44,404 nt of DNA from Anaerolineae bacterium (lineage in GTDB: Bacteria > Chloroflexota > Anaerolineae > S016-19). Below the pieces are notes generated by a model that was not told the origin of the DNA, did not search any database, and was given only the letters and a program-made list of their open reading frames with translations. Positions 1 through 41,552 of this stretch are shown in pieces. The first letter of the stretch is position 1. Each line of letters starts with the position of its first letter. Made by a program: the position numbers and the translations under genes. Location: positions 1 through 44,404 of the forward strand of contig WFSD01000025.1 in assembly GCA_015486235.1 (NCBI GenBank), in the 5' to 3' direction.

Positions 1-2
1 TG

Positions 3-1745
3 GCCGGATACGATTTCGTGGATGACGATTCTGACCCGGACGATGCCAACGGGCATGGAACACACGTGGCTGGCATAGCCGCCGCGGGCACCAACAACGG
101 TGTCGGAATAGCGGGAATATGCGGCAATTGCAGCGTGCTGCCAATACGTGTTTTGGATGCCAACGGCGTTGGGACATGGTCCCAGGTGGCTGACGGCATC
201 ATTTATGCTGCAGATCATGGAGCCAAAATCATCAATCTCAGCCTGACGGGCAAGTATCCCTCCAATGCGGTGGCCGATGCAGTGAACTATGCCTGGAACC
301 ACGGAGCTCTGATCGTGGCTGCGGCGGGCAATTCCGACTCATCCGAACCAGCGTATCCTGCCGCTTACGACAAAGTTATGGCGGTGGCGGCCTCCACCAC
401 GGATGACTCTAAGTGGGGGCTTTCCAACTATGGTGACTGGATTACCGTGGCGGCTCCCGGGGCTACGGTTTACAGCACCGTGCCTGGGGGCGGATACGAT
501 TTCAAGAGCGGCACTTCCATGGCTGCTCCTCATGTGTCTGGCCTTGCGGGGCTCATCTGGTCGGTGGACCCAAATTTGACGAACCAGGATGTATGGAACT
601 TGATTACCGGGCATGCTGATGACCTGGGCGACCCTGGCAAAGATGAGTACTTCGGGTGGGGAAGAATCGACGCTGCTGCCTCAGTCCGCGCAGCCGCTGC
701 AACCGCAGGAAGCACTTTGGAGGCAGTTGTCTGGTATGATAGGAATGGGGATGGCATCCAGCAGGCTGACGAGGAGCCCCTCCCAGGGGTCTCTGTCAGG
801 TTGCACTGGGCCGATGGAGATAGGGTGTACGAACCGGATGGCGACGATTACCTGGTGGCTGAAAACACCACGGACAGTACGGGAACCTATAGCTTCCACG
901 GATTGGAGCCCGGACATGGATACTGGGTGGAAGTAGATCAGTCCACGTTGCCAAAGGGGCTGGCTGCTACACCAAAACTGTTGTTCGCTCCGGGGAACAC
1001 GCAGGTGCAGGCACCGTTGGGCATTGGTTATCCGGCGGGACAGGCCTCAATGGCGTCTCCTTCATCAACGTCTGAGGCCGCGGCATCGGTGTCGGTGACC
1101 GAGCAAGTCACGTTGGTTGGCAAGGTATGGAACGATCTCGACGGGGATGGGGTTGTGGATCCCGGCGAGCCGGGCATGTCTGGGCGCACAGTGAAGATAT
1201 TTTCTTCAGATGGGTCTCAGGTGACGCAGGCGGTTACCGATGACAACGGGGATTTCACCGTGTCGGACCTGGCTGCCGGTACCTACACCATCTCCGCGGA
1301 TATTCCTGAGGGGTATGCCAGCACAACTTCGACGAGTGAAACGGTTTCTGTCGCCCCCGGTGCCACTAAATCGGACATAAACTTTGGTGTCGTTGCTCCT
1401 ACTGCGGTACAGGTAAGTTCTTTCGCCGTCAACCCCGAAGGCGGCGCAGTGCGTGTTGCATGGAGCACCACATTGGAAGAGGGTGTGACGTCGTTCGTCG
1501 TCCAGAGAGGGTTGAAGAGCAAAGGCCCATGGACCTCGGTAGGTGAAGTCCAAAGTGCCGGAGTAGGTGGGCAGGGGGCTGATTATGAATTCACTGACAC
1601 CGGTGTGAGGTCTGGCATGGTGTACTGGTATCGTGTCCAGGCTCAGCCATCGGGAGAAGCTGTGGGCCCTGTTTCCGTGAGCGTACCGATTGGCGGCAGT
1701 AGCAATGTCTTGCTCTTCGTGCCTGCCGTCATGGCATCCCGGTGA
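3..1745 (+). CDS. Subtilisin-like (S8) serine peptidase, 5'-truncated by the window edge, with SdrD/Cna-B-type repeats in the C-terminal half
   Basis: The reading frame is open to the window start. It has the His motif HGTHVAG and the Ser motif GTSMAAPHVSG. Two repeats of the type NGDG/DGDG...TDxxGxY...G.Y follow, then a hydrophobic C-terminal tail. Confidence 0.85.
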   Translation, partial: AGYDFVDDDSDPDDANGHGTHVAGIAAAGTNNGVGIAGICGNCSVLPIRVLDANGVGTWSQVADGIIYAADHGAKIINLSLTGKYPSNAVADAVNYAWNHGALIVAAAGNSDSSEPAYPAAYDKVMAVAASTTDDSKWGLSNYGDWITVAAPGATVYSTVPGGGYDFKSGTSMAAPHVSGLAGLIWSVDPNLTNQDVWNLITGHADDLGDPGKDEYFGWGRIDAAASVRAAAATAGSTLEAVVWYDRNGDGIQQADEEPLPGVSVRLHWADGDRVYEPDGDDYLVAENTTDSTGTYSFHGLEPGHGYWVEVDQSTLPKGLAATPKLLFAPGNTQVQAPLGIGYPAGQASMASPSSTSEAAASVSVTEQVTLVGKVWNDLDGDGVVDPGEPGMSGRTVKIFSSDGSQVTQAVTDDNGDFTVSDLAAGTYTISADIPEGYASTTSTSETVSVAPGATKSDINFGVVAPTAVQVSSFAVNPEGGAVRVAWSTTLEEGVTSFVVQRGLKSKGPWTSVGEVQSAGVGGQGADYEFTDTGVRSGMVYWYRVQAQPSGEAVGPVSVSVPIGGSSNVLLFVPAVMASR

Positions 1746-1824: not shown

Positions 1825-2901
1825 TCAAAACAAATGCACTGCCGATGCTTTGAAGGTCATGTACACCCGCTCTCCCACGTGAAGATTCAGGTCTTCCCAT
1901 GAGCGGCGGGTTATCAGCACTTCGAACTCCGGCGGCACGTCCACAGTGACCCTTAGCACCCTGCCGTTGTCCACCACTCCTGCCAGTCGTCCTCGGAAGC
2001 AATTCCTGGCGCTGGACTCGAATGGGGTGGGGGATAGAAGGATGTCCTCCGGGCGCACCATAAGCGAGACAGTGCCCTTTGCATCTGTGGGAACGGCTAT
2101 ACGCATCTCTGGTAGTACTTTGATGTAACTATATCCATTTTCCTGAACTGCCGTCCCGCGGAAGAGGTTCCGCCCGCTGACGAACCGTGCCACAAATTCG
2201 GAGCTGGGCTTGCGGAATATCTCTTCTGGGGTACCGACTTGCACTATTTTGCCTTTACGACTGTCGCCATCAGCGCACATTTTCAGCACCGCCACTCTTT
2301 CCCCCAATGCAAACGCTTCCTCAAAGTCATGGGTCACGTGGATGGTGGTTGTGCCGATGTGATGGTGCAGGCGTTTCAGCTCCTGTTGGAGCGATTCTCG
2401 TGTGCCTGGGTCCAGGGCGCTAAGGGGTTCGTCCAAGAGAAGCAAATCCGGTTCAGTGATTAATGCCCTTGCCAGCGCTACCCGTTGTGCTTCGCCCCCG
2501 CTCAACGTGCCTGGCCAGCGGTCCAGCAAATGCTCTATTCCCAGGAGATTGCACATCCTCTCGACTTTCTTTTCGGCCTCTTTCTTGGCTACCCTCCGCA
2601 ACTGCAACCCGAAAGCGATGTTGTTCCTGACCGTAATGTGGGGGAAAAGAGCATAGTCCTGGTAGACGAACCCGACTTTCCTTCGCTCTGGTGAGAGATG
2701 TGTCACGTCGGAACCGTGGATCAAAACCTTTCCGGCGGTCGGCCTCCGCAGGCCTGCAATGGTTTCTAGCAGCACAGTTTTGCCCGCGCCAGTGGGACCG
2801 AGAACTATGAAATACTCCCCTCGAGCGACTGAGAGGGTTGCCTTTTCCAGAGAGAACCCCCCTGCTGTGATCTGCAAACCCTCGATCCGTAGCCCGTCCA
2901 T
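1825..2901 (-). CDS. wtpC: ABC transporter ATP-binding protein, molybdate/tungstate type with a C-terminal TOBE-like domain
   Basis: Walker A GPTGAGKT, signature LSGGEAQRV, Walker B LLLLDEP. The start is taken at MDGLRIEGL, whose ATG overlaps the wtpB stop (TGATG). The longer 437-aa ORF would overlap wtpB. The symbol is assigned from context with wtpA. Confidence 0.8.
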   Translation of the reverse strand: MDGLRIEGLQITAGGFSLEKATLSVARGEYFIVLGPTGAGKTVLLETIAGLRRPTAGKVLIHGSDVTHLSPERRKVGFVYQDYALFPHITVRNNIAFGLQLRRVAKKEAEKKVERMCNLLGIEHLLDRWPGTLSGGEAQRVALARALITEPDLLLLDEPLSALDPGTRESLQQELKRLHHHIGTTTIHVTHDFEEAFALGERVAVLKMCADGDSRKGKIVQVGTPEEIFRKPSSEFVARFVSGRNLFRGTAVQENGYSYIKVLPEMRIAVPTDAKGTVSLMVRPEDILLSPTPFESSARNCFRGRLAGVVDNGRVLRVTVDVPPEFEVLITRRSWEDLNLHVGERVYMTFKASAVHLF

Positions 2902-3707
2902 CACCTCGACCTCCGATTCGTCTGCCCGGGGAGCATTCTGAGCAAGGTGAACGCCGCAAGCCCGATCAGGATCATCAGGGCAGCTACTGGTCTGGCATAC
3001 TGCAGTCCAAAAGACTCGAAGCGTTCGTAAATCAGCACAGGAGCTATCATGGGATGGTATGCCAGGATGACGACTGCCCCAAATTCGCTGATCCCCCTCG
3101 CCCACATCAGGATGACGCCAGAGAGGATGCTCCGCCAAGCCAGCGGCAGCGATATGCGCCAGAATGTCTGCCAGGGTGACGCGCCCAGGGTACGGGCGAC
3201 TTTCTCCAGCCTGGGATCCACACCTTCAAAGCCGTCCTTGGCAGCGTCCACCAGAAACGAGAGGCTCACGAAAAGCATTGCTATCACGATACCTGGCGTT
3301 GCCGAGACGAAACGTACTCCGAACACGCTAAAGAGTTTCCCCACGGGTGCTTGCCGTCCGAACACTGTCAACAAAGCTATGCCTGCTGCAGAGTGAGGGA
3401 CTACGATCGGCACGTCTATGATCCCCTCGATCACTCGTTTTCCTGGAAAGTCCGTTCTGGCGAGGGTGTACGCCAGCGGGACTCCGGATACCAGGGCTAT
3501 GACCGTGGCAATCAGCGATGCGTAGAAAGTGAGCACTACGGCGGATCTCACTTCTCCGTCTTCGATAGTATCCCGGAAAGCAAGCGGAGGGTTGGTTACG
3601 ACTGTCTTCGTCAGCGGCCATACGATGAAAAGCAGTAATAGTCCTCCGAGGAGCAGGAAGAGTGCTCTTGTTTTGTTTTCACGGACTGTCCCTGGTAGCT
3701 TGTACAT
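2901..3707 (-). CDS. wtpB: ABC transporter permease, molybdate/tungstate family
   Basis: 268-aa polytopic membrane protein with a BPD-transporter-like core (ARTLGASPWQTFWRISLPL). It is translationally coupled to the downstream ATPase. Confidence 0.8.
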   Translation of the reverse strand: MYKLPGTVRENKTRALFLLLGGLLLLFIVWPLTKTVVTNPPLAFRDTIEDGEVRSAVVLTFYASLIATVIALVSGVPLAYTLARTDFPGKRVIEGIIDVPIVVPHSAAGIALLTVFGRQAPVGKLFSVFGVRFVSATPGIVIAMLFVSLSFLVDAAKDGFEGVDPRLEKVARTLGASPWQTFWRISLPLAWRSILSGVILMWARGISEFGAVVILAYHPMIAPVLIYERFESFGLQYARPVAALMILIGLAAFTLLRMLPGQTNRRSR

Positions 3708-3920
3708 GCTTGCGAATTTGTCCTTCCATGGGAGACGAGATTGGTCGCCGTGAGTTCATGCTTGCTGCATAACGAATGAAGATGGCCCGCCAATCGAGCC
3801 GACAGCAGTCGGCAGGTACTGGATTGTCACTCGCTATGGACAGCGATATCGTGCTCGACGTCCCCTGTGAAAATAGACAATTTCTGCCGGCTTGCGTTCC
3901 ACCGGTAGGAGCGCACTTAA

Positions 3921-3951
3921 GCGTAGAGCAGGCCGCAGGCCTGCTCTACGC
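3921..3951. other. Perfect 14-bp stem / 3-nt loop hairpin inside the long wtpB leader
   Basis: GCGTAGAGCAGGCC-GCA-GGCCTGCTCTACGC read directly. There is no U-tract on either strand. Confidence 0.6.
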
Positions 3952-4064
3952 CCCAACATCTAGTAAGTGGAGAGCACTCCAGACCTACTAAAAGCGCTTT
4001 CGGTAGCCACCACGGTTAATGGGGTGCTACCGTTCCACCTTCTTGATTCGAAAATGGATGTTTT

Positions 4065-4094
4065 TATATATGATACCATACCTCGCCTTCCCAA
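4065..4094 (-). promoter_or_regulatory. Weak sigma70-like promoter candidate downstream of repeat copy A, facing wtpB
   Basis: On the minus strand: TTGGGA-18 nt-TATATA. It sits at the position equivalent to the stronger promoters that follow copies B, C and D. Confidence 0.3.
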
Positions 4095-4113
4095 ACCAGC
4101 TTTCAAAGCAATC

Positions 4114-4274
4114 GGGATTTCGAAGCAAATCGTGGGGGCCCTACGGGCCCCCACGATTACCTCATGGGCCCGTTGGGCATCCATCAACCCCAGTTGGCAA
4201 GCCGTGCCTTCTATCAGATGCGTCGAGAAAGCCCCAAAGATGGATCTTTGGCTTTCGATTTACTTTGAAAGCCC
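4114..4274 (-). repeat. Structured MITE-like repeat, copy A (inverted relative to copies B-D)
   Basis: 19-bp imperfect terminal inverted repeats (GGGATTTCGAAGCAAATCG ... CGATTTACTTTGAAAGCCC). Internal hairpin AATCGTGGGGGCCC-TAC-GGGCCCCCACGATT at 4128-4158. Conserved core CTTGCC..GGGGTTGATG on the minus strand. Flanked by GCAATC at 4108-4113 and 4275-4280. Confidence 0.8.
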
Positions 4275-4338
4275 GCAATCTCAATGCGGGAAAGTGGGAG
4301 AGGGGGAAAGCGCTTACCACCTCAATACTGCCACTTCG

Positions 4339-5166
4339 TCAGCGTTGTTGGGCACGCAGGAGGGTGGGGGGGGTGGCAGGTTCGATTCGCGTTGTGGAAT
4401 CTAATGGATTTGCATAGTACGGTGCGGAAGTAATTATCGTGTCCGCAAATCTGGCAAAATCCTGTATGTTGCATTCGCCCACGTTCCCTGCAACCGCAAT
4501 CTCTACTCTTGGATTCAAGGCTTTTAACTTTGGAACAATTTTTGCGAGTTTCTGGGGAGTGTGGTGATCCAGCAGAAGAACATCCGCTACTTTTGCAAAT
4601 CTGAAAGCTTCTTCCTCGTTTCTTGGCTCAATCTCGATCTTTCTCGTCGATTTGAGGTCCCTTAACTCATCCACGAATCTCAAATGGTTGGGCGTTATCA
4701 GAACCGAATCGCTCAAAGAGTTCCTGTGAACTCGACCGCCACCCGCAATTACTGCTTTGAGTTCAAACCTTCTCATTCCAGGGTGGGCCTTCCTGGTTGT
4801 CGCTATCATGACATTTGGATTTACAGATTTGGCAAGACTTGCGAGCTTGTTTGTTTCAGTTGCAATAGCGCATGTTATGGATAAAAAAGTCTGCGATACC
4901 CTCCAGGACTTGAAAAGTGTTTTTACTTCTCCTTTTACCTCAAATATCACATCCCCAGCTCTGAACCTCTCCCCGCTTTCTACGAATCTCAATACATCTA
5001 TACCCTTCTTTTTGTAAAGTCCTGCCAAGTCTTCGGTGCAGGCCGATATCCCGTCTGCCCTCGTTATTATTCTCAGTGCTCCCTCACCTTGTATCTTCAA
5101 AAGCTCGACAGTGTCATCTTCATATGGGCAATCTTCATGCAGATAAAGTTCGAACAGATCAAACAT
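4339..5166 (-). CDS. modD: ModD-like protein (NadC/quinolinate phosphoribosyltransferase fold)
   Basis: NadC-like core TRKAHPGMRRFELKAVIAGGGRVHRNSLSDSVLITPNH. It lies immediately downstream of modABC on the same strand. Confidence 0.7.
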   Translation of the reverse strand: MFDLFELYLHEDCPYEDDTVELLKIQGEGALRIITRADGISACTEDLAGLYKKKGIDVLRFVESGERFRAGDVIFEVKGEVKTLFKSWRVSQTFLSITCAIATETNKLASLAKSVNPNVMIATTRKAHPGMRRFELKAVIAGGGRVHRNSLSDSVLITPNHLRFVDELRDLKSTRKIEIEPRNEEEAFRFAKVADVLLLDHHTPQKLAKIVPKLKALNPRVEIAVAGNVGECNIQDFARFADTIITSAPYYANPLDSTTRIEPATPPTLLRAQQR

Positions 5167-5171
5167 TTTGT

Positions 5172-6230
5172 TTACCCCACTATCTTGAGGTTTACAGCTT
5201 TGAACGAGGCGAAAACATCCTGCCCGACCACCAAGCCCATAGAAGCTATTGAACTTGGAGTCACGACCGCCTTGAGCCTCAAGCCGTCACAGCTTAAGAT
5301 CAACCAAGCTAAATTGACGCCCCTTATGACATCCTCCAATTTGCAATGGATCACATTTTTGGCGGAGCTTGCCAGCAGTGTGTTCGAGATGATTATATCC
5401 TCGGGTCTAATGGATACCTTCACTTTCTCGTCCCTCTCAGCCCGGTCGGTAGAGTAAAACACATGTTCGCTCGTCCTAATAAGCGTCAAACCATTTTCCT
5501 CACGTGCAACAATTCCATCCAAAATATTTGTTCCAACAAAATCCGCCACGAAGTCGTTTGAAGGTCTGCTGAAAACCTCTTCTGGCCTTCCGGTCTGTAT
5601 AGACTTCCCATCTTTTATGACGACAACCTTGTTCGCCAGGCTAAAAACGTCGTCGAAGTCATGTGTTACATGCAAAACCGTCGTGTTGTATTCTTTGACG
5701 GCTTTTCTTACAAGTTTTCTTAGGTTTTCCCTCATCTTTACATCCAGGGCACTGAAGGGTTCATCCATAAGCAGTAGCTTCGGCTGGACGACTAAAGCCC
5801 TTGCGATAGCAACCCTTTGCTGTTCTCCGCCACTCAGCGTCGTGGGTTTTCTGTGCAGAAGGTGGGATATACCCAGTATTTCCGTAATCCTTTTTATTTC
5901 TTCCTCAATTACGCCATTGCTATTTTCTCTTTTCTTTAGTCCGTAAGCTATGTTTTCGAAGATGTTCATGTGTGGGAAGAGGGCAAGATCTTGATATACT
6001 ATGCTAACCCCTCGCATTTCTGGGGGAAGCTGAGTTATATCCTTGCCTTCAATTTTAATGCTTCCCTTGAGTGGTTTATAGAACCCCGCTATTGTTTCAA
6101 GCAATATGGATTTACCACTGCCGGTAGGTCCAATTATTGTGACATAATCGCTCTTGCTGACCTTCAGGCTTACATCGTTTAGCTTGAACTCCCCTAGATC
6201 AGCACTTAGGTTTTCGATTTCGAGGATCAC
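5172..6230 (-). CDS. modC: Molybdate/tungstate ABC transporter ATP-binding protein with a C-terminal TOBE-like domain
   Basis: Walker A GPTGSGKS, signature LSGGEQQRV, Walker B LLLMDEP. There is a 4-nt ATGA overlap with modB. Confidence 0.85.
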   Translation of the reverse strand: MILEIENLSADLGEFKLNDVSLKVSKSDYVTIIGPTGSGKSILLETIAGFYKPLKGSIKIEGKDITQLPPEMRGVSIVYQDLALFPHMNIFENIAYGLKKRENSNGVIEEEIKRITEILGISHLLHRKPTTLSGGEQQRVAIARALVVQPKLLLMDEPFSALDVKMRENLRKLVRKAVKEYNTTVLHVTHDFDDVFSLANKVVVIKDGKSIQTGRPEEVFSRPSNDFVADFVGTNILDGIVAREENGLTLIRTSEHVFYSTDRAERDEKVKVSIRPEDIIISNTLLASSAKNVIHCKLEDVIRGVNLAWLILSCDGLRLKAVVTPSSIASMGLVVGQDVFASFKAVNLKIVG

Positions 6231-7006
6231 AGCTTGCCACCCTCCACCTTTTCAAACACAAGAATGGCCAGGAACGAGATAACAATCAAGACGATGCCGC
6301 TTGTCATTGCCATGGCTATGTTTCCGTAAGATATGTTCAGATAAAGCGTGATCGGCAATGTCTCGGTGTTCATGTAAGAACCACCTGCAAGTACCAACAC
6401 GGCACCGAATGCACCCATGCATCTTGCAGACGTGATTATTGTAGATGCAAAAATTCCTCCTCTTGCTAGTGGAAGCGTTATGTTCTTGAAAGTTTCAAAT
6501 TCACCGTATCCTAAACTCCTCGATACTAACTCGAATCTTGGATTGACTGATTCGAATGTTGAGCAGAGTATCCTTGTCGCGTAAGGGAAGGCGGTGAAAA
6601 CCTGTGCAATCACCACGCCAAGCTTGGTGAAGACGATTTTAATGCCGATGAACTCCAGTGCTTTGCCCATGGGTGTCTGGCCAAATAGAATGAGTAGCGA
6701 GAGACCTAACACAAGTTCTGGGAATGCTATTGGCAGGTCCAGTACAGACTTGACGATGCTTTTTCCGGGAAAAGAGAATCTGGCAAGGGAATACCCGATG
6801 GGTATTCCCAAAGCCAGAACAATGGCGGTTGAGATGCCTGAAGTGAATAGCGAGAGCTTGATTGAGTATATCATCTCTTCGGTTCGAAGAGAGTTCAGGA
6901 TTTCTCTTGGATTCGGAACGAAGAAAAGCGATGCTATTGCTAAAAAGAGAATGAGGGTGAAGAAAAACGACGTGAGAATGCACAGAGTTCTAAACTTCAC
7001 TTGCAT
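6227..7006 (-). CDS. modB: Molybdate/tungstate ABC transporter permease
   Basis: 259-aa polytopic membrane protein with the permease motif SRSLGYGEFETFKNITLPL. It overlaps the modA stop by 10 nt. Confidence 0.8.
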   Translation of the reverse strand: MQVKFRTLCILTSFFFTLILFLAIASLFFVPNPREILNSLRTEEMIYSIKLSLFTSGISTAIVLALGIPIGYSLARFSFPGKSIVKSVLDLPIAFPELVLGLSLLILFGQTPMGKALEFIGIKIVFTKLGVVIAQVFTAFPYATRILCSTFESVNPRFELVSRSLGYGEFETFKNITLPLARGGIFASTIITSARCMGAFGAVLVLAGGSYMNTETLPITLYLNISYGNIAMAMTSGIVLIVISFLAILVFEKVEGGKL

Positions 7007-7836
7007 GGTTTAAACCCCCACTTCTCCCAGATTTTCACCCCTTTTTCATTCGTTATGTAATCGTTAAAAGCTTTTGCAATTTCAAAGTTACCGCTTTTCT
7101 TGGCACGGAGTGTTACAGCAGTGGGGATGGTTTTTATTGCATTTTGTTCCGGAGGGATTTGGACGACCTCAATTTTCCCCTTAGCTTGCGCCCAGGTTGT
7201 CATATCCTCCCAGATTGTTGTGCCATCGGCTTGTCCTGTTGCTATGTATATCAAGAGCTGGTTTACAGTAGGTGTGAACACGACAACATTCTTGCTAACA
7301 TTTTTCCATAGGCCATTCTTCTCGAATATCTTCTTGGAAACTTTGCCTATGGCGGCTGCCTTAGGGTCGCCGAGGACTACCCTGACGCCTGGTTTTGTCA
7401 GATCCTTTAGTGAGTGGATATTCGCAGGGTTCCCTTTTGGGACCGCTATGACGGGGACATGCAAAGTCACGTTTTTTACAGTATCGTTCACAATGTATCC
7501 CTTTGATATTGCATTCTTGGTGTAGTAGTAGGCACCGGGAACGAAGATATCGCAGCCTGTGGTGGTTAGGACTCCATATATTTCGGCACTTCCTCCATAA
7601 TGAACTTCTACTTTCGCCCCGGTTCCCCTTTCAAAGGTTTTTATTAATTCGTTCATGGGCTTCATCAGGCCGGCCCCAGAACAGACGACTATTGTCTTTC
7701 CAGAGAACTTTTCCTGGGGTTTTGCGATGTTGGAGTTCGAAAATGCGTGTATGCCTACCACCACCACAGAGCCAATTACCAGGACTGCCGCCAAAATGCG
7801 ATACCACTTTTTAATAAATGTTACCGTCTTTTCCAT
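6997..7836 (-). CDS. modA: ModA-family periplasmic molybdate/tungstate-binding protein
   Basis: The start is taken at MEKTVTF, preceded by GAAGGAGGAG. It has an N-terminal hydrophobic anchor and a ModA-like core (VVCSGAGLMKPMNELIKTFE...GGSAEIYG). Confidence 0.75.
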   Translation of the reverse strand: MEKTVTFIKKWYRILAAVLVIGSVVVVGIHAFSNSNIAKPQEKFSGKTIVVCSGAGLMKPMNELIKTFERGTGAKVEVHYGGSAEIYGVLTTTGCDIFVPGAYYYTKNAISKGYIVNDTVKNVTLHVPVIAVPKGNPANIHSLKDLTKPGVRVVLGDPKAAAIGKVSKKIFEKNGLWKNVSKNVVVFTPTVNQLLIYIATGQADGTTIWEDMTTWAQAKGKIEVVQIPPEQNAIKTIPTAVTLRAKKSGNFEIAKAFNDYITNEKGVKIWEKWGFKPCK

Positions 7837-8071
7837 TACTCCTCCTTCTTCGGGACAAAGGGATCTGATTGGCAAATCGGCCTGTTTGTCCAAAGTCTGA
7901 TTATCTCGCCAACCCGACAGTTGTACATTGACATCATAATCATCAATAGCGTGCCCTCTCCACACCCTTGCTAATGATAGAGGAAGGGAATAAGTGGTAG
8001 GGGCGATAGTTCGTTTCTCGCCCCGTTGGGGGTGGATAAAGGCACACAGTCAGCGCTTTAAGCGCTCCCCG

Positions 8072-9067
8072 CTACTTCACCAAAGGTTTAAGCGGCGCCG
8101 GCAATTTGTCTTTCCCCGTAGCGGCTACTGGCGGGACGATGGGAGGCTGCCCGAGCTTGTTCAGTATTGCCTGCCCTTTGTCGCTCAGTAAGAACTGCAC
8201 AAACTCCACTCCAAGCTCGTGGTGTGGAGCGTTTTTGGGCACGGTCACCCCGTAAACGATGGGCTTACCCTCCTTGATTAAAGTCGTTCCTGGTTTCTTC
8301 CCCGAGATCTCCACCTTTGCCTGGCGGTAAAAGTCCTTGAACTTGACGGAGGAGAGGTTTATTTCCTCCGGCAATTCCACAAATTTGAGTCCATGCTGTA
8401 CTGCCACAGAACGGTACTCGAAAGCGTAGTCCATGTCCCCGGATTGCAGCAATGCGATCAACTCCACGGACTTGGGCCGGACATTCTCCGGAGGGCAGTG
8501 ATCCTGGAGCCGTTTGTACAGCCCGGGGACCTTGTAGTACTTCTCTGCCAGTTGCCACACCATGAGTGTTCGATATCCGCATGGATCGGCGTTGGGGTCT
8601 GAATGCCCGTAGACTACACCGTCCCTGGTGAGCACATCATACCAGTTGTCTGGGGTGATCTCGTTGGCGTATTTCGACTTGTTGGTGTACACGAGCACCA
8701 TCATGTTCCGGGCAAACTGGATGTTCCAATCCGCGAATTTGGGGATAAGCAGGTTGTCGATGACTGTGTAGTCAGCGGACATCATCACGTCGGCTTGCCT
8801 TCCGAGGTCGCTTATCTTGCGGGCGGCCGTAACGCTGCCAGACGCCTCGGTCTCTATCTCCACACCTGGGTGGTTCGTCTTGAAAGCTTCTGACATCTCT
8901 TTCAGTGGCACAGTCAGGCTGCCTGCATGGAAAATCACGATTTTTTGGCTGACGTGGGTCGGTTCCTGGGGCGGTGATGCGCTCTTCCCTGTGCCGGGCC
9001 CACACCCGGAGGCGATCAACATGACGAAGATCATTGCTAATGCAATCCATGTGTAGCGCTTTCTCAT
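8072..9067 (-). CDS. wtpA: WtpA-type tungstate/molybdate-binding lipoprotein
   Basis: The start is at MRKRYTW, preceded by GGAGGA. Lipobox LIASGC. Long collinear matches to WtpA as I recall it (FHAGSL, SGSV, SADY, NPNADPCGYRT, PIVYG.TVP.NAPH). Confidence 0.75.
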   Translation of the reverse strand: MRKRYTWIALAMIFVMLIASGCGPGTGKSASPPQEPTHVSQKIVIFHAGSLTVPLKEMSEAFKTNHPGVEIETEASGSVTAARKISDLGRQADVMMSADYTVIDNLLIPKFADWNIQFARNMMVLVYTNKSKYANEITPDNWYDVLTRDGVVYGHSDPNADPCGYRTLMVWQLAEKYYKVPGLYKRLQDHCPPENVRPKSVELIALLQSGDMDYAFEYRSVAVQHGLKFVELPEEINLSSVKFKDFYRQAKVEISGKKPGTTLIKEGKPIVYGVTVPKNAPHHELGVEFVQFLLSDKGQAILNKLGQPPIVPPVAATGKDKLPAPLKPLVK

Positions 9068-9077
9068 TGTTTCCTCC

Positions 9078-10181
9078 TCACAACCAGGTTTCCTTACCCG
9101 TATCCCGGGTATCGTACCCTCCCATTGCTTCCACGGCATCATGAAATTCAGTGGTACGTGCCAGTGCCAGTAACGCCTGTACCCCTTCTGTCTTCCACGC
9201 TTTTTGGTCAATCACCAGGTCGTACTCTTCGCGCGTGAGTTGTACGAAATCCAGGCCATAAGCCGTAGCCGCAGCCTGAATCCCTAGTCCAACGTCGGCG
9301 TGTCCTTCGGCCACTGCTTTGGCAACGCTCGTGTGGGTGATTTCTATGGTGTCGTAGCCTTTAACTTCCTCAGGCGATACTCCGAGCGACCGCAGGTGTG
9401 CATCCAGCCACACACGAGTACCGGACCCCTCCTGCCTGTTTATGAACCTTACATCTGATCTTGATAGGTCCTCGATCCTCTCGATATGGAGAGGATTGTC
9501 CGGAGCCACAATCAGCCCGAGGCGTCGATACACCAGTGTGAAGATAGCGACTTTCCGTCCTGGTAGCACCCGCCGCACGTATGGAATGTTGTACGTGCCG
9601 GATTGCTCATCCCACAAATGGCACCCTGCCAAGTCCGCCTCGCCGCGGGCCATGGCGATAAGCCCGCCAAGGCTGCCCTTGTACTCTACGTCGAAATCGA
9701 TATCGGGGTGTTTTCGCTTCAGTATCTGGAAGAGGTACTCAACTGCCAGGTCATGGCTACCCACAAATCGGATGCAGGTGATCGTGGGGCTTTCCGTTGG
9801 TGCGGTCGGGTGGTCCTGGCTTTCGTTCCACCGTGCCAACGCTTGCGCTAGCGCTGCCTGTGCCTCGGCGGGCGTGTGGCCTGCTCCTATAGCGTCCAGT
9901 AGGTAGCGCTCTGCCCGGTTCACCAGGACTGTCCATCGCCATGCCGAGCGCTCATGGGCGAGAGGGCCTGTCGCGACGTGGGTGCCGCCTCCGCGCTGCC
10001 CTACCACCAAGCCTTCGCGTGCAAGCTCCGCATAGGCGCTGTTCACCGTGCCCGGCGAGCACTTCCACTGGCTGGCGAGTTCACGCACAGGTGGTAGCCT
10101 GTCGCCGGGTCCGAGTTTGCCCTGGGCTATCTGCTTTCGTATGGATTCTGCAATTCTGAGGTAAGCCGGCGCCTGTTTCAC
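9078..10181 (-). CDS. Transcriptional regulator: GntR-type winged HTH fused to a periplasmic-binding-protein-like (putative oxyanion-binding) domain
   Basis: N-terminal RLPPVRELASQWKCSPGTVNSAYAELAREGLV and a C-terminal ~230-aa PBP-like region. The start is taken at the GTG at 10181 behind AGAGGGGA; the ORF could extend to 10322. Its stop lies 11 nt before the wtpA start. Confidence 0.7.
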   Translation of the reverse strand: MKQAPAYLRIAESIRKQIAQGKLGPGDRLPPVRELASQWKCSPGTVNSAYAELAREGLVVGQRGGGTHVATGPLAHERSAWRWTVLVNRAERYLLDAIGAGHTPAEAQAALAQALARWNESQDHPTAPTESPTITCIRFVGSHDLAVEYLFQILKRKHPDIDFDVEYKGSLGGLIAMARGEADLAGCHLWDEQSGTYNIPYVRRVLPGRKVAIFTLVYRRLGLIVAPDNPLHIERIEDLSRSDVRFINRQEGSGTRVWLDAHLRSLGVSPEEVKGYDTIEITHTSVAKAVAEGHADVGLGIQAAATAYGLDFVQLTREEYDLVIDQKAWKTEGVQALLALARTTEFHDAVEAMGGYDTRDTGKETWL

Positions 10182-10328: not shown

Positions 10329-10460
10329 AACACACTCTATGCCGACGTCAAGTTCAAGATGGAGAAATCAAACGTGGCATCGAAAAACCTCCTGATTCTA
10401 TCGGCGAGGCAGGAGTGATGTATGGCGCTTCTCAGGGATTACTTCGTTTTCCAAGACCAG

Positions 10461-10616
10461 GGCTTTCGAAGCAAATCGGAAGCCCGAAGTCGTTTCAGAA
10501 GCTTCCTCGGCGCTTCTGAAGCAATCTGCTACTTGCCGTTGGGGTTGATGTGGAGCGATAACGGTTCTGGGGATTCCTGGGGGCCCGTAGGGCCCCCAGG
10601 AATTGCTTCGCCCTCC
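10461..10616 (+). repeat. Structured MITE-like repeat, copy B
   Basis: 5' end GGCTTTCGAAGCAAATCG. Local stem TTCAGAAGC/GCTTCTGAA (10494-10520). Core CTTGCCGTTGGGGTTGATG. Hairpin ATTCCTGGGGGCCC-GTA-GGGCCCCCAGGAAT (10573-10603). 3' end TTGCTTCG. Confidence 0.8.
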
Positions 10617-10632
10617 CGCCAGATTTGGGAAC

Positions 10633-10662
10633 TTGACGGATAGGTAGTGAACGACGTACAAT
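10633..10662 (+). promoter_or_regulatory. Sigma70-like promoter following repeat copy B
   Basis: TTGACG-18 nt-TACAAT. The -35 box starts 30 nt after the hairpin. Confidence 0.5.
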
Positions 10663-33740: not shown

Positions 33741-34339
33741 AGGTTAGCGCAGATTTCGCTGATTTTTCGGAAGGGTTCGGGAAATGCGAGTAACTCCACA
33801 GCGCGTCGCACTGCTCAAACGGGAAGAAACGCTTGCTCTAGGGGCGCACCGTGCTGCACCCATCGTTGAATCCGAAAAGGGAGTTGTGTTGGCGCTTGCA
33901 AGCGCCGGATGATAAAAACACAAACCCTTGGCGGATGGCTTGGCAGTGCCAGCCTTACCGCCTCGGTTTGGGATGACGATGTAGCGGCGGGAGGCATTGC
34001 TTTTCCAGGAACTCATCTCCAAAATCAGCGAAAAGTCCGGTTAGTGTTCTCAATCTACCAATTTGAAGGCTCCTGTCTACTCGCCTGAACATCAGTTTCA
34101 CTCGGTGACTACCCATATCTCGCTGTTCTACGCCATTCCGGTCCGAGCTTCTACGAAGTGAGGAGTCTTGTCCGCAATCGGCGAATCAACGAGTGGGCGA
34201 GGTTCGTTGATTTACTCACTTGTTGATTCGCTGATTTCGATTTCCCCTCTACAGGAGCTCCCTGGCCCGACCCTGGATGACTGTCCATACTCGAGAAGAT
34301 CATCCTAGCTCTTTGGTTTGAAAAGCCCTGCCCTTGGGG

Positions 34340-34496
34340 GGCTTTCGAAGCAAATCGAGGCCGGGGAACGCCCTTGGGAGCCCTCACAGTCGATACAGGG
34401 CTTGTGCTGTGGCTTGCCAGGGGTTGACGAGAACCTCCCGAAAGGCAGGTTAATTCCTGGGGACCCTACGGGTCCCCAGGAATTACTTCGCTCTCC
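34340..34496 (+). repeat. Structured MITE-like repeat, copy C
   Basis: Nearly identical to copy D. Hairpin TAATTCCTGGGGACCC-TAC-GGGTCCCCAGGAATTA at 34451-34485. Confidence 0.85.
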
Positions 34497-34513
34497 CAGC
34501 CCAAATATGGTAC

Positions 34514-34542
34514 TTGACAATGTCGTATTTTTGATGTATAAT
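34514..34542 (+). promoter_or_regulatory. Consensus sigma70-like promoter following repeat copy C
   Basis: TTGACA-17 nt-TATAAT read directly, about 210 nt upstream of the SDR gene. Confidence 0.65.
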
Positions 34543-34769
34543 GATCGGTGGACAGACCAGCAGATGGTATGTTGTGTATCTCTAATCATTCTGTGGCAGA
34601 GGGCAAGCGGCGTTCTCGTTAGAGCTTATCCTTGCTGGCTTATCGCCTCGAGGATGAGGAACCATTGTTTGCGGATAGCTTCCCTTCACTTAAAGAGTGT
34701 CTGCTGATCAGTAGCAGGAAGTTCACACAAGAACATAAAGATAAGGAGACAAGCACATTGGTCACACAA

Positions 34770-35540
34770 ATGAACTTGGAAGGCAAGGTCTCTCTTGTTA
34801 CAGGTGGGGCAGGTGGAATTGGGGCAAGCATTTGCGAGAAGCTTGCAGCGTTGGGATCGTTCGTCTATGTTTGTGACATCAAGGGAGCGACGCAAGTCGC
34901 GGATCGCATAAACGCAGGGTACCAGATGCCAAGAGCTGCACCTGCAGAGTGTGATATATCAGACAAGAGAGAAGTCAAGGCCACGTATGATCGCATCTCG
35001 GAACAAAAGGGCGGGGTAGACATACTCATTAACAATGCGGCGGTGTATGGCCCCTTGAAGTCTCATCACTTTCCTGACATCTCGTATGAGGATTTCGTAA
35101 AAACAATTCAAGTGGACCTTTCCGGTGCTATGTATTGCACGCTTTTAGCACTTCCTTACATGAAACGGAAAGGGTGGGGTAGGATTATTTTCACTGCAGC
35201 TCCGATGTCTTCCTCAGGGATTCCATCGCCGTATCTTGCAGGGAAGGCTGGTTTTATTGGCCTTACGAAGTATCTCTCAATGAAATACAGTCAAGGCGGT
35301 ATATTGACATTTGCCCTGGCGCTGAGACACGTGGATACCCCAATGATAAGAAGGGTTATAGAAAGCAGGGGGGGAGATGTCAAGGAGGGCATCAAGGCGA
35401 TGCACAAAAAATCTCTGACTGGTAGGATGATCACTCCGGAAGAGGTAGCTGACATATATGCGTACTTCGTCTCGACCGCTCCTTCTGGTGTTAGCGGGGC
35501 AGTCATCCTTGCAGACGGTGGAATCACGTACCTGCGATGA
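34770..35540 (+). CDS. Short-chain dehydrogenase/reductase (classical SDR)
   Basis: TGGAGGIG cofactor motif, NNAA, catalytic YLAGK. An alternative TTG start at 34758 lies 9 nt after AAGGAG. Confidence 0.85.
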   Translation: MNLEGKVSLVTGGAGGIGASICEKLAALGSFVYVCDIKGATQVADRINAGYQMPRAAPAECDISDKREVKATYDRISEQKGGVDILINNAAVYGPLKSHHFPDISYEDFVKTIQVDLSGAMYCTLLALPYMKRKGWGRIIFTAAPMSSSGIPSPYLAGKAGFIGLTKYLSMKYSQGGILTFALALRHVDTPMIRRVIESRGGDVKEGIKAMHKKSLTGRMITPEEVADIYAYFVSTAPSGVSGAVILADGGITYLR

Positions 35541-35556
35541 GAGGAGGAAAGACACG

Positions 35557-36264
35557 GTGAAAGAATCAACGGAAGAGTATGAAGGTAAGAATTGTGTAAT
35601 ATTTGGGGCGAATAGCATTGTTGGCGTAGGGATAGGCAAATTCCTTGCCAGGAGTGGTATCAATCTTGGTCTGGTAGATATTGATTCTTATAAGGAGGAT
35701 ACTCTTGTAGAGAAGGTAATGGGCTCTAGGGCCAAGGTCGTCTACAGGACAGTCTCATCCTCCAGCGAGGAGAGCTTTGAGAAAGCCGCGGCTGAGATCA
35801 ATAATAGCTTGGGTGGTATAGACTGTCTGATCTGTACATATTATTTTGAAGAAGAGAGGAAAAGGATAGACGAGAACGATATGTGTGTGGACGCTTGGGA
35901 TAGATGGCTTAATCACTGGGTGCTGAGTTACTTCCTTGCTATGAAGGCAATTGTCCCATATATGATGCAGAGGAAGGCGGGAAAGGTGATCTTTGTGAAT
36001 ACTACTACAGGGTATACCGGGGAGGGCGAAGGAGAGGGGGGACTTACCGGGAATGGATCTATCTATGAGTGTGCTTCCTCGAGTGCTATCACGGGGATGA
36101 TGACGTCGATAGCGAGGGATGTTATTCCGAGGGGGATCTCGGTGAATGGGATATCTCTTGGTCCTGGTTATAGGGATGATATGGAAAGCATAACTTGGAC
36201 AGTCAGGCTGTGGCTTTCGGGAATGTGCGAATATGCTTGCGCACAAATTCTTAGATTATATTAG
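35557..36264 (+). CDS. Divergent SDR-like Rossmann protein lacking the canonical YxxxK lysine
   Basis: GTG start behind GAGGAGGA. GANSIVGVGIG glycine-rich loop. YECAS stands where YxxxK is expected. There is an unusual GEGEGEGG insertion. Confidence 0.65.
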   Translation: MKESTEEYEGKNCVIFGANSIVGVGIGKFLARSGINLGLVDIDSYKEDTLVEKVMGSRAKVVYRTVSSSSEESFEKAAAEINNSLGGIDCLICTYYFEEERKRIDENDMCVDAWDRWLNHWVLSYFLAMKAIVPYMMQRKAGKVIFVNTTTGYTGEGEGEGGLTGNGSIYECASSSAITGMMTSIARDVIPRGISVNGISLGPGYRDDMESITWTVRLWLSGMCEYACAQILRLY

Positions 36265-36275
36265 GAGGCATTACA

Positions 36276-36908
36276 GTGGATGACGGTTTGAGGAGCAAGA
36301 TTCTGGCAGAATGGGGGATTGGTAGCCTAAGCTTCGATCAGAAAGTGATCAGAATTTTCGAGAAGGTGAGGGACATACCATTCGGGCAGATTGGTTCCAG
36401 GGATCCAAAGGACGTTTATGAGCAGAACAAAGGGACATGCTCAGGGAAGAACTTCCTGCTAAGAGAGCTATACAAAGGGATTGGGGTGCAGACGAAGGAC
36501 ATGATATGTTTGCAGCGCTGGAAGGACCTAACGTGGTTCCCGGACGACACCTACGGGATTGTCAACTTCCCTGATGAACTGGTGCACATGTTGGAGACAA
36601 CCGATGTCGTGGATTTCCACAATTACATAAAAATACTGGTAGGTGGTAGATGGATTACACTTGATGCTACGATTGATCCCCCTCTTAGAGACCTGGGATT
36701 CTATACCACAGAACATTGGGATGGCGTATCCGATATGCCGCTGTGTTTTGTTGGTACGCATAAGGTGTGGGATTGTGGTGATAACGGTTCGGAAATAAAA
36801 GCACAGCTGATCGCGATGCTTCCGGAAGAGATCCGGGAAGCAAGGCACCTGTTCCTTGTGAAACTAACAAAGTGGGTTAATGATTTCAGGGAGGAAAGGA
36901 TGAGGTAA
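36276..36908 (+). CDS. Transglutaminase-like (papain-fold) domain protein
   Basis: Candidate Cys-His-Asp triad: GTCSGKNF, DFHNYIKI, ITLDAT. No signal peptide. Confidence 0.55.
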   Translation: MDDGLRSKILAEWGIGSLSFDQKVIRIFEKVRDIPFGQIGSRDPKDVYEQNKGTCSGKNFLLRELYKGIGVQTKDMICLQRWKDLTWFPDDTYGIVNFPDELVHMLETTDVVDFHNYIKILVGGRWITLDATIDPPLRDLGFYTTEHWDGVSDMPLCFVGTHKVWDCGDNGSEIKAQLIAMLPEEIREARHLFLVKLTKWVNDFREERMR

Positions 36909-37044
36909 CCTGTGTTTCTTCCCTTGGGGAAGCTGGAAGGAGGTGAATGCAAACATGACATGAGTTGATTGTCCGGTAGTGATGCGTCGGTTTTGCACAG
37001 AGTTGGCAATTGGCGGAGGTCAACAACATTTAAGGAGGTCAAAA

Positions 37045-38286
37045 ATGGAAGAGCGGAGTTCGTCCGGATACGCGTGGTGGGTAGCGATTATCAGCACGAT
37101 TGGGTCGCTTACCGTTTTCTCTACCATGACTTCGTATTCGATGACATCGCCCCAGCTTGCTAAAGCACTAAGTTCTACCCAGAGTGCAGTTATGTTCGGG
37201 GAGACGGTTCGAATGATCTTTTGGGTAGTGGGGCTTATCGTGGGCGGGGCAGTTATTGGTAAAATAGGTGTTAAGAAAACTGTTGTTCTGGCGATGGCTT
37301 GTCTGCTTGTCCCTCAGTTCCTGTTTCCATACATCGGCGATTATACATTGTTGTTAGTGCTCAAGGCCATCCAGGGTTTTGCCTCTATGTCTTGGCCTGC
37401 ATTCGTCGTAGCGACTATGGGGTGGGTGCGAGGAAAGCAGATAGGGCTCGCCTCCGGGATATTCCTCGGAGGTAGCCTGGCTGGCGGTGGAATCGGTGGC
37501 GTTATTGTTGGCCATGTCATACCTTCAATGGGGTGGCGGGCATCTTTCTGGGTGCTTGGGCTGATCTCGCTTGTAGTAACTGCCATTTGGTATGTAACTG
37601 TAAAAACTGCTCCTGCACAAGCTCCGGAGACATCAGCTGTTACTAAGGAAGAGTCCACAACAGGCCCTTCGCCATTCTCTAAGATGCTGCGAATGCCCGA
37701 AACATGGCTGCTTTCCCTGATTATGCTAGGAAGCACTTGGATGCTGTTTGGCTTATTATCAACTCTCCCGATCTATGGGGCTAGCATGGGGTATAATGTA
37801 ACAAAAGTCGGCAACTTGATGACTGCAGTATCCATTGGGTACATTATTGCAGCCTTGATTGGGGGCTCCATATCGGATGTGTTTGCTACGAAAATGAAAA
37901 ATCAGCTGAAAGGGAGATCTATGACGATGGCTGTCGGGTTCATAATTGCCGTTGTCGGAGCAGCCCTTCTGCCGTTGCTCGCTCCAGTGAGCTTCGGCGC
38001 ATTTTATTTCGTAGCCCTTCTCTCTGCATTTGGTAACTCCTGGCCGCAAGCAGCTTTTTGGGCTGTACCTTCAGTAGCATATACACCTGACGTGGAAGCT
38101 GCAGGGACCGGGTTTGTTGGAGGTATCGGGAACATATCTGACCCAATTTCTCCATTAGTTATTGGGACTATCTTGGGTGGAGCAGGTTTGTGGAATGTGG
38201 GCTGGTGGACATGCGCGATTGCGAGCGCTGTTGCATTGCTTGCGTCGCTAGCTCTTGCCGCTCGAGGCAAGCCAGATGCGTCTTGA
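37045..38286 (+). CDS. MFS-type transporter
   Basis: The start is at MEERSSS behind AAGGAGG. About 12 hydrophobic segments with a central hydrophilic loop. Confidence 0.7.
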   Translation: MEERSSSGYAWWVAIISTIGSLTVFSTMTSYSMTSPQLAKALSSTQSAVMFGETVRMIFWVVGLIVGGAVIGKIGVKKTVVLAMACLLVPQFLFPYIGDYTLLLVLKAIQGFASMSWPAFVVATMGWVRGKQIGLASGIFLGGSLAGGGIGGVIVGHVIPSMGWRASFWVLGLISLVVTAIWYVTVKTAPAQAPETSAVTKEESTTGPSPFSKMLRMPETWLLSLIMLGSTWMLFGLLSTLPIYGASMGYNVTKVGNLMTAVSIGYIIAALIGGSISDVFATKMKNQLKGRSMTMAVGFIIAVVGAALLPLLAPVSFGAFYFVALLSAFGNSWPQAAFWAVPSVAYTPDVEAAGTGFVGGIGNISDPISPLVIGTILGGAGLWNVGWWTCAIASAVALLASLALAARGKPDAS

Positions 38287-38602
38287 CCCCAGATAGTCAC
38301 AATAGGATGTAGGTCATGAGTTATGTTCACGCTAGCAGTATAGCAAACGGAGATGGCGGGCGATTCGATCTCAGTTTGCTTGTGTGATGGAGTTTGCCGT
38401 CTGGGCGGGCCTACGCGGCCGCCCAGACGGCACCCTGGACGTGCCTGCGTCACAGCCCCGCCGAGCTCGAAGACGTATTCGCATTACTGTGGAAAATTAC
38501 ATATCCTCGCAGGCACTGCACAGGCCGAAGGGACCGAAATGTAACATGGTAAAGAGCGATAGAGAAAGTTCACGAAGAGAGATAAAGGAGGGTAAGTCCA
38601 AA

Positions 38603-40177: not shown

Positions 40178-40226
40178 AGACAAGGAGGCGAACCGGTTAA
40201 GATCAAGCTATTTCGACGAGCTGACA

Positions 40227-40271
40227 CCACCACTGGTCTGCTGAAACCCTGTTTTCGGCTGCCAGTGGTGG
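40227..40271. terminator. 10-bp stem with a large loop between convergent genes (kinase and FadR-type regulator)
   Basis: CCACCACTGG-(25 nt)-CCAGTGGTGG read directly. Confidence 0.4.
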
Positions 40272-40305
40272 CGGGTCCTTATGGAAAAACAAGGAGGAAC
40301 CACGA

Positions 40306-41025
40306 TTATTTCGCTTTGACATGATCGAATAATCCTTCTCGTTTCAGGTCTTCCAAAGCATTCTTGAGGTGTTGCTCCATGGCTTGCCTGGCGGCCTCAG
40401 GATTTTTTTCTTCAATGGCTTGCAATATTTTCCTGTGCTCTGGAATAGACTTCTGAGCTCTATCGGGGATCCTGAGAGTAGCTTTCCATCCCTCCTTGAG
40501 ATATTTCACAAAGGTATCCATGAGATACATTAGCGTGCGGTTACGGGTAGCCTTGGCGATTCTGTGATGAAAACTGCTATCTGCCAGAATTACCCCGGCA
40601 AGGTCTCCTTTGTCTATTTTTTCTTTCATCTCTTCCAAGGTCTTACGCATAGCCTGGATGTCTTCTTTTGTGGCTCTCTGAGCGGCTAGATAGGCAGCGC
40701 CGGGTTCGATCACCTGTCTTACCTCAAAGTGCTCCAGTAAATCTTCTCTATGTAATAAAAGCCAGGAACCAAGAGGAGTGTCCGTGATGTCTTCGGTTCT
40801 CTCCCTCACAAACGTACCGTGCCCTGGTCTCACTTCCACAATGCCTAACGCTTCCAAAACCCTTATTGCTTCCCTGACAGTGCTGCGTCCAACTCCCAGT
40901 TCTTGAGTGAGCTGGCGCTCCGCTGGGAGCTGAGAACCAGGTTTCAATTCCCCTTCGGCGATGAGCTCTTTGATCCTCTCTACGACGAGGTTGGGAAGAT
41001 TGACTTTCCTCACAGGTTGAAGCAT
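40306..41025 (-). CDS. GntR-family regulator, FadR subfamily (FCD ligand-binding domain)
   Basis: wHTH QLPAERQLTQELGVGRSTVREAIRVLEALGIV plus an all-helical C-terminal domain. Confidence 0.85.
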   Translation of the reverse strand: MLQPVRKVNLPNLVVERIKELIAEGELKPGSQLPAERQLTQELGVGRSTVREAIRVLEALGIVEVRPGHGTFVRERTEDITDTPLGSWLLLHREDLLEHFEVRQVIEPGAAYLAAQRATKEDIQAMRKTLEEMKEKIDKGDLAGVILADSSFHHRIAKATRNRTLMYLMDTFVKYLKEGWKATLRIPDRAQKSIPEHRKILQAIEEKNPEAARQAMEQHLKNALEDLKREGLFDHVKAK

Positions 41026-41057
41026 TTTCTCTCGTTCCTCCTAAACTGTAAACTACA

Positions 41058-41328: not shown

Positions 41329-41375
41329 TTCACTCCGGCTAAGAGACGATGTCCGAACTCATGTCGAAAGGCCAG

Positions 41376-41538: not shown

Positions 41539-41552
41539 GGCCAGTTCACCTC

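Follow-up and report, generated by a model that had tools for sequence, protein, structure and literature searches.

Promoter-directed transposition in bacteria is known only from two transposase lineages, TnGBS/ISLre2 and part of the ISKra4 group. Elements of TnGBS/ISLre2 (p-MULT 3) and of the ISKra4 lineage are inserted 15-17 bp upstream of the -35 hexamer of sigmaA promoters (Guerillot et al. 2014, PMC3942029). Insertion of TnGBS/ISLre2 is oriented, with the right inverted repeat facing the promoter, and this orientation has been attributed to the asymmetry of the inverted repeats; the ISKra4 group, which belongs to p-MULT 4, has Mutator-like DDE transposases, and 8-9-bp direct repeats are left by both lineages (PMC3942029). 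A targeting signature has been published for the transposases of these promoter-targeting elements. MITEs receive no mention in that study (PMC3942029). In the wider literature, no MITE was found reported in Chloroflexi, and none was found derived from ISKra4 or ISLre2.

The repeat described in this study resembles well-known bacterial MITEs (Correia/NEMIS, RUP, MITEAba12) in its small size, its inverted repeats and duplications, its dispersed, intergenic and non-coding copies, and the assembly breaks that accompany them. To our knowledge, none of the known bacterial MITEs is positioned upstream of host promoters at a set distance and in a set orientation, and a literature search found none; Correia elements carry promoter parts themselves. 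Among other miniature elements, those derived from Tn3 (TIMEs) have a 5-bp target duplication and G-rich termini, and Tn3-family inverted repeats are ~38 bp long, start with GGGG and end with TAAG. The present family shares the 5-bp duplication and the G-rich termini with TIMEs, but its inverted repeats span only ~13-19 bp, start with GGG followed by A, C or T, and have no TAAG. We know of no promoter targeting by Tn3.

Four copies of the repeat, designated A to D, were found in the window, that is, the whole 44,404-nt stretch of Anaerolineae DNA analysed here. The repeat probably constitutes a family of non-autonomous MITEs of Anaerolineae, ~158-165 bp in length, which are moved in trans and insert upstream of sigma-70/sigmaA-type promoters, with 13-16 nt between the 3' end of the element and the -35 hexamer.

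Further members were collected with a pattern built from two conserved blocks, TTCRAAGYAAATCG and GGGGTTGA, which was scanned over species-representative genomes. The scan recognised 51 stretches in genome contigs, ~45 of which are true copies, and the hosts of all these true copies are Anaerolineae, Anaerolineales or Chloroflexota MAGs; ~17 near-identical copies reside in a single fragmentary MAG, CAZCPK01. A metagenome scan added 18 further loci, and an nhmmer family model gave 76 matches over the collected DNA. After removal of duplicates and truncated copies, the non-redundant full-length set comprised 51 copies from the window, Anaerolineae/Chloroflexota MAGs and metagenomes; an earlier copy set used for duplication scoring comprised 43.

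Copies are ~140-180 bp long, typically 155-167 bp, and the element encodes no gene. The internal spacing is very constant: GGGGTTGA follows the 5' block at 76 nt, and GCTTCG follows GGGGTTGA at 64 nt. Family members end 5'-GGG...CCC-3' and are bounded by an imperfect inverted repeat of ~13-19 bp, the consensus of the ends being GGGnWTTCGAAGCAAATCG (5') and, on the reverse strand, GGGnnnnCGAAGC (3'). Across copies, the terminal 19 nt of both ends match at 8-16 positions, with 16 in copy A. Where copy bodies are near-identical, unrelated flanks begin exactly at GGG and CCC.

Several subtypes were distinguished. Type 1, found in the window and in MAG CAZDOZ01, has GC-rich hairpins and fairly symmetric inverted repeats, while type 2, found in most MAGs, contains an internal third copy of the terminal repeat that is able to pair with the 3' end; a more divergent group is metagenomic (L066-L072, the L numbers denoting collected loci). 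A short form of 92 bp, which comprises the right half only and has perfect GGGCAAACGAAGC inverted repeats at its limits, was observed at 3060-3149 of L006. One end of this short form is 13 nt away from a promoter (TTGCGC, 16-nt spacer, TATAAT), which suggests that the GCTTCGTTTGCCC end is the one facing promoters.

Other repeats were noted in the collected loci. A second MITE of ~92 bp is nested in two copies, in opposite orientations (L018 ~5035-5120 and L026 ~4840-4925); its inverted repeat reads ~GTTCCA(G/A)AAA.T.AAACCT.CCAAA, and a 5-bp duplication, CTTAG, is present in L018. MAG CAZDOZ01 contains a third repeat family, starting GGACTTT(C/T)GACAATCGGGCT.CCCTGCTGGGCTGAG..., at ~270-410 of L022 and at ~2985-3050 of L043, in the latter case just to the right of the element. 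The L022 copy of this third repeat, ~140 nt long, is located in the leader of a dehydrogenase operon, where the window has none.

The four window copies, all of type 1, and the direct repeats flanking copies A and D are the following.

4114-4274, minus strand (family orientation): MITE copy A, type 1, 161 bp, matched by nhmmer to positions 1-158, the full family model
4108-4113, unstranded: duplication of copy A, GCAATC as read on the plus strand, adjoining the 3' end of the element; perfect (6/6) and in register with 4275-4280
4275-4280, unstranded: duplication of copy A, GCAATC, adjoining the 5' end of the element; in-register repeat of 4108-4113
10460-10617, plus strand: MITE copy B, type 1, 158 bp
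34339-34497, plus strand: MITE copy C, type 1, 159 bp
41375-41538, plus strand: MITE copy D, type 1, 164 bp, with an internal 6-nt duplication, GCCCTC
41370-41374, unstranded: left duplication of copy D, GGCCA, 5 bp, with boundaries from the family alignment
41539-41543, unstranded: right duplication of copy D, GGCCA, 5 bp, read from the sequence

Copy A has the GGG...CCC ends of the family, and its imperfect 19-bp inverted repeats, GGGATTTCGAAGCAAATCG and GGGCTTTCAAAGTAAATCG, are identical at 16 of 19 positions, in agreement with the first-pass annotation, which had also recognised GCAATC on both sides of this copy (4108-4113 and 4275-4280). The 6-mers abut the family termini exactly, and the duplication of copy A is a true 6-bp one. 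The same annotation had described GGCCAG on both sides of copy D, and these strings are present as well (41370-41375 and 41539-41544). Its further proposition that the two perfect 6-mers occupy homologous boundaries holds for the strings but not for the homology, the boundaries of D and B not being strictly equivalent to those of A. The G at 41375, the last of the left 6-mer, is also the first G of the GGG terminus of copy D, and the 3' end of this copy, GCTTCGTTTTC (last base 41538), falls two C short of the family consensus, GCTTCGnnnnCCC. Since the 6-mer borrows a G from the element and the 3' end is two bases short, the repeat in register is one of 5 bp; the duplication of copy D thus reads best as GGCCA, with the sixth base, G, ambiguous. 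For copy B the reported agreement at four of six positions (GACCAG against CGCCAG) was reproduced, and its immediate flanks, ACCAG and GCCAG, match at 4/5 positions only with a 1-nt shift; the duplication here is degraded. Copy C, as had been noted, has no recognisable direct repeat in its flanks.

Scoring the flanks of all copies for direct repeats, which the first-pass annotation had put forward as a check, revealed perfect in-register repeats in 25 of the 51 copies (5 bp in 18, 6 bp in six and 7 bp in one). Chance would yield ~0.08 (~0.06 for 5 bp, 0.02 for 6 bp and 0 for 7 bp), an expectation obtained by combining every left flank with right flanks taken from other copies, the family model having set the boundaries. 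Repeats with one mismatch were observed in 10 more copies against ~1.3 expected, no duplication was seen in 16, and no in-register 8- or 9-mer was found among the 51. A chance origin of the duplications is therefore excluded at the family level. Ordinarily the duplicated stretch is 5 bp long, lengths of 6-7 bp being less frequent. The MITE interpretation offered by the first-pass annotation is thus supported for the family by these in-register repeats, although the 6 bp that it gave as the length of the duplication is not the usual one (six copies against 18 with 5 bp). By eye, the duplicated sequences have no consensus (e.g. ATAAT, TACCAT, GTGATC, CGGGA).

The position of the element relative to promoters, a feature that the first-pass annotation had not recognised, is also regular. 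The promoters considered here are predicted ones, being matches to consensus hexamers in uncultured organisms that have no mapped transcription starts. A strict scan for TTGACA-like and TATAAT-like hexamers, with a 16-18-nt spacer and invariant T/A positions, found a match on the outward strand of the 3' flank in 22 of the 51 copies. For 20 of these 22 flanks (20/51 copies, B, C and D among them) the start of the -35 falls at positions 13-19 past the 3' end of the element; the gap between the two is 13-16 nt (once 18), with a mode of 15, and the promoter reads outward. The controls gave two matches on the opposite strand of the 3' flank and two on the 5' flank read inward, and no match had that offset. 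The same promoter geometry occurs at the 5' end in four copies. About 60% of the 51 copies fail the strict scan, many of them having weaker promoter-like hexamers at the same offset when inspected by eye. Outward ORFs do not discriminate orientation, being present on the 3' side in 31/47 cases and on the 5' side in 30/52.

The promoter features predicted beside the window copies are listed below.

4070-4078, minus strand: predicted extended -10, TGgTATCAT, downstream of copy A, recognised by eye and below the threshold of the strict scan
10633-10662, plus strand: predicted promoter by copy B, TTGACG, 18-nt spacer, TACAAT, 15 nt from the element end
34514-34542, plus strand: predicted promoter by copy C, TTGACA, 17-nt spacer, TATAAT, 16 nt from the element end
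41553-41581, plus strand: predicted promoter by copy D, TTGACA, 17-nt spacer, TACAAT, 14 nt from the element end (41538)

The predicted -10 by copy A starts 39 nt past the element end, an offset equal to that in B and C, and is accompanied by a weak -35, TGGTTT; judged from these hexamers, all four window copies fit the promoter geometry. The duplication sits between the element and the -35, and the promoter is therefore part of the target and not of the element. The promoter sequences adjoining near-identical copy bodies are unrelated to one another. The choice of target appears to be non-random, directed to promoters that read away from the 3' end of the element.

The fixed geometry might instead have been made by selection. 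Transposition would then be approximately random, copies would survive only where they are harmless or useful, and the 3' arm would act as a portable upstream module, for example a factor-binding site or an insulator, effective only at ~15 bp from a -35. With this spacing the 3' inverted repeat does fall at ~-50 to -65, where activators are typically found (class I activation); the GGGGTTGAT core and both repeat ends are conserved, at constant spacing, in all subtypes; and the strong hairpins of type 1 could stop read-through. However, the youngest subfamily, that of CAZCPK01, already has the geometry in L029, L031, L038, L042 and L051, and its copies are near-identical, which leaves little time for selection. 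Moreover, there are almost no copies with a promoter at other distances, and true targeting has a mechanistic precedent (PMC3942029). Targeting is thus favoured over selection as the source of the geometry, and an origin by selection is considered rather unlikely.

Comparison with related loci suggests in addition that the promoters exist with or without the element. The locus L022 (CAZDOZ010000068.1) is syntenic with 34732-41102 of the window at ~85% identity. Copy C is absent from the orthologous site in L022, L060 and L061, in all three of which the promoter is conserved, and L022 retains 12/12 nt of the left flank of copy C together with the promoter on the right. In L022, TGAAAAGCCCTG and GGTACTTGACA are 13 nt apart, whereas the window has 8 nt, copy C and 11 nt between them; the six extra flank nucleotides are what a diverged 5-6-bp duplication would leave. 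The reverse situation is found at the GntR/FCD gene, where a family member in L022 ends 14 nt upstream of the -35 and the window has no element.

41063-41106, minus strand: unoccupied target, comprising the promoter of the GntR/FCD gene (TTGCGG 41092-41087, TATACT 41068-41063) and 14 nt upstream

As these promoters are kept without the element, they are independent of it, and the element comes and goes there. The search for empty sites at related loci, another proposal of the first-pass annotation, was thus successful in showing the absence of copy C (L022, L060, L061) but did not provide a clean single-copy target. A clean single 5-bp empty site is not reconstructable in the L022 comparisons (~85% identity) because the junction sequence has diverged; the empty site of L022, GGGCCCCC, could be an excision footprint. 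BLAST of the joined flanks against the collected loci returned no further empty sites, and the neighbourhoods of two xylulokinase homologues, P0002 and P0007, are not syntenic with the window.

Same-strain assemblies (ENA, REYS20-1, and GCA_027073775.1) were also compared, and their contigs break at copies B and D, which is what repeats dispersed over a genome would be expected to cause. The contigs L057 and L058 begin ~100-140 nt downstream of copy D, and L059 begins inside the last bases of copy B. Another contig of the same strain, L056, spans copy D with the element in place, and none of the same-strain contigs encoding proteins identical to those of the window shows an empty site. In L020 and L040, from MAGs of different species, the element occupies one orthologous site; its flanks there are 91% identical and include the same imperfect 6-bp repeat (ATTATC/CTTATC), and the insertion is older than the split of the two.

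The first-pass annotation had stated that no transposase gene is present in the window, and indeed no match to transposase families was found among its 30 largest ORFs. The search for an autonomous element was extended by fuzzy terminal-repeat matching in all loci, inspection of solo hits and BLAST of a solo end found in L047; neither an autonomous copy nor a transposase with matching ends was recognised in the window or in ~80 related loci (~0.5 Mb). No autonomous partner having been found, we infer mobilisation in trans rather than observe it. The solo 5' terminal repeat of L047, GGAATTTCGAAGCAAATCG, is located at 1-145 (minus strand, contig start), where it is followed by non-MITE sequence that the contig end truncates; a longer relative, perhaps an autonomous one, may terminate in this repeat.

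Under the preferred reading of a MITE family directed to promoters, a transposase whose gene lies elsewhere would act in trans; most likely it would be a DDE enzyme binding to the repeats with GGG termini. What the transposase complex would recognise is either the architecture of the promoter or promoter DNA to which RNA polymerase is bound, and its cut, with a 5-bp stagger, would have its centre ~12 nt upstream of the -35. If the centre of the cut is fixed, a 9-bp stagger at 16 bp and a 5-bp stagger at 14-15 bp would both be centred at that point. The asymmetry between the two inverted repeats would determine orientation, as has been suggested for TnGBS/ISLre2. A site just upstream of a promoter would offer the element a safe haven in which genes are left unbroken, and insertion would displace the DNA upstream of ~-50, such as UP elements or activator sites.

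By analogy, the family may work like the promoter-targeting elements of TnGBS/ISLre2 and ISKra4. It resembles the ISKra4 lineage in its fixed insertion, which in that lineage lies ~16 bp upstream of the sigmaA -35, and in its GGG...CCC termini, which are given for the ISKra4 group in five rows of supplementary table S1; in addition, p-MULT 4 includes elements from Chloroflexi, the phylum of the MITE hosts (PMC3942029). However, elements of the ISKra4 group are 1.4-2 kb long, encode their own transposase and have 9-bp or no repeats, whereas the present elements are 158-165 bp, non-coding and flanked by 5-bp (6-7-bp) repeats. Beyond GGG the repeat sequences are unrelated, with GGGTGC or GGGCG in the ISKra4 group and GGGnWTTCGAAGC in the MITE family. 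Promoter-targeting ISKra4 members have near-perfect inverted repeats and occur in both orientations, while the MITE family is strongly oriented, and the inverted repeats of p-MULT elements in general (18-39 bp, with a conserved terminal C) are longer and less imperfect than those found here (~13-19 bp). The distance to the -35 is 15-17 bp for TnGBS/ISLre2 as against 13-16 nt, mode 15, for the MITE family; TnGBS/ISLre2 elements differ further in being autonomous, in their 8-9-bp repeats and in their hosts, which are Firmicutes, Fusobacteria and Synergistetes. Given a duplication of 5-7 bp and not 8-9 bp, the family has not been filed as a member of p-MULT. What is new here is the miniature form of a promoter-targeting transposon, the host group and the different length of the duplication.

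It may tentatively be proposed that an undescribed transposase with a 5-bp stagger, which would not be a classical p-MULT enzyme, reads the architecture of sigmaA promoters or of promoter DNA in complex with RNA polymerase and integrates the element, in a set orientation, ~15 bp upstream of the -35; we regard this as possible, though on the doubtful side. If it is true, promoter targeting would have arisen a further time, in Chloroflexota, and dozens of promoters in each genome would be marked, and perhaps rewired or insulated, by an abundant non-autonomous element. More generally, a high-copy miniature element with this geometry extends promoter-directed transposition to Anaerolineae and points to a partner transposase. 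Each copy serves as a mark of a likely promoter in mostly uncultured organisms for which transcription starts have not been mapped, and the repeats fragment metagenome assemblies at predictable places. Should the element displace upstream regulatory DNA or block read-through, regulation would be altered by it throughout the genome.

A quite different reading, according to which the repeat is a multi-copy gene for a structured non-coding RNA, or a cis-regulatory RNA, with flanking 6-mers that are coincidental, is very improbable. It is true that the window copies fold far better than shuffles (z ~-4.8 to -5.1) and that the hairpin arms vary between copies with pairing kept. However, type 1 folds with the same strength on either strand (z about -4 to -7), a sign of DNA palindromes, and the recently amplified type 2 copies fold like shuffles (z ~0). 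The element is also located upstream, not downstream, of promoters, and family-wide target duplications are foreign to RNA genes. In Rfam 15 there was no match in the window or the element at the gathering threshold, with only noise up to E-value 10. RNAalifold on 20 type 2 copies gave only the pairing between the internal third repeat and the 3' end, and the z-scores show no family-wide structure; the RNA gene was accordingly rejected as a candidate. Scans of the window for tRNA and tmRNA were negative.

It is hardly credible, finally, that the 6-mers in the flanks are part of some longer conserved element or a product of chance, with no real duplication in the window: CCAG occurs in the flanks of both B and D, copy C has no repeat and the 6-mer of D needs boundaries shifted relative to those of A, but flanks beyond the termini are unrelated over 51 copies, the duplications have no consensus by eye, the 6-mer of A is in register with the family termini and so is the 5-mer of D once a 2-nt terminal loss is allowed. 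The caveat of a longer element, raised in the first-pass annotation, fails since near-identical copies have flanks of unrelated sequence. One sequence shared by the flanks of A and B, TTTGGGAA, had been taken as a possible continuation of the element; it lies at different offsets, 20 and 7 nt from the element end, and is therefore no such continuation. Nor does CCAG, suggested as a target preference, appear to be a general target motif, since the perfect duplications have no consensus by eye.

Two other identities were considered for the repeat. REP/REPIN elements are palindromes of 20-40 bp, often tagged GTAG or CGTC, which occur singly or as inverted pairs and make no duplication (in part after PMC3733652). 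This identity is ruled out by the ~160-bp unit and the target duplications. Palindrome elements derived from IS200/IS605 have neither terminal inverted repeats nor a duplication and insert 3' of a fixed tetra- or pentanucleotide. A derivative of this kind is ruled out by the inverted repeats, the duplications and the flanks, which have no fixed motif.

The window itself is an ordinary stretch of chromosome, with genes for a subtilase, for two Mod-type ABC transporters with TOBE domains, for solute-binding proteins and for quinolinate phosphoribosyltransferase; among its regulators are a GntR protein with a periplasmic-binding-protein-like domain, a histidine kinase with a response regulator, and proteins of the GntR/FCD and LacI types. 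A molybdopterin oxidoreductase with a formate-hydrogenlyase-like membrane hydrogenase, Hyp maturation genes, an aldehyde:ferredoxin oxidoreductase, short-chain dehydrogenases, an MFS transporter and xylulokinase were also recognised. It was observed that 1825-9211 and 13266-33740 are dense in functions related to molybdenum or tungsten, namely the Mod-type transporters, the GntR regulator, the molybdopterin oxidoreductase/hydrogenlyase-like complex and the aldehyde:ferredoxin oxidoreductase.

Two non-coding stretches near the window copies deserve mention. The leader downstream of the copy C promoter, at ~34549-34700, shows strong conservation in L022 and partial conservation in L060 and L061 (GGACAGACCAGCAGATGGTATG..., GGCGTTCTC.TTAGAGCTTATCC.TGCTGGCTTATCGCC); no Rfam match was found for this leader, which precedes the short-chain dehydrogenase genes and is a candidate cis-regulatory RNA. 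Between the copy A promoter and the gene for a ModB-like permease there is an untranslated gap of ~360 nt (3708-4069), and at 3919-3956 within it lies a near-perfect GC-rich palindrome, gcgtagagcaggccgcaggcctgctctacgc. The palindrome gave only noise in Rfam and could be an attenuator or terminator hairpin.
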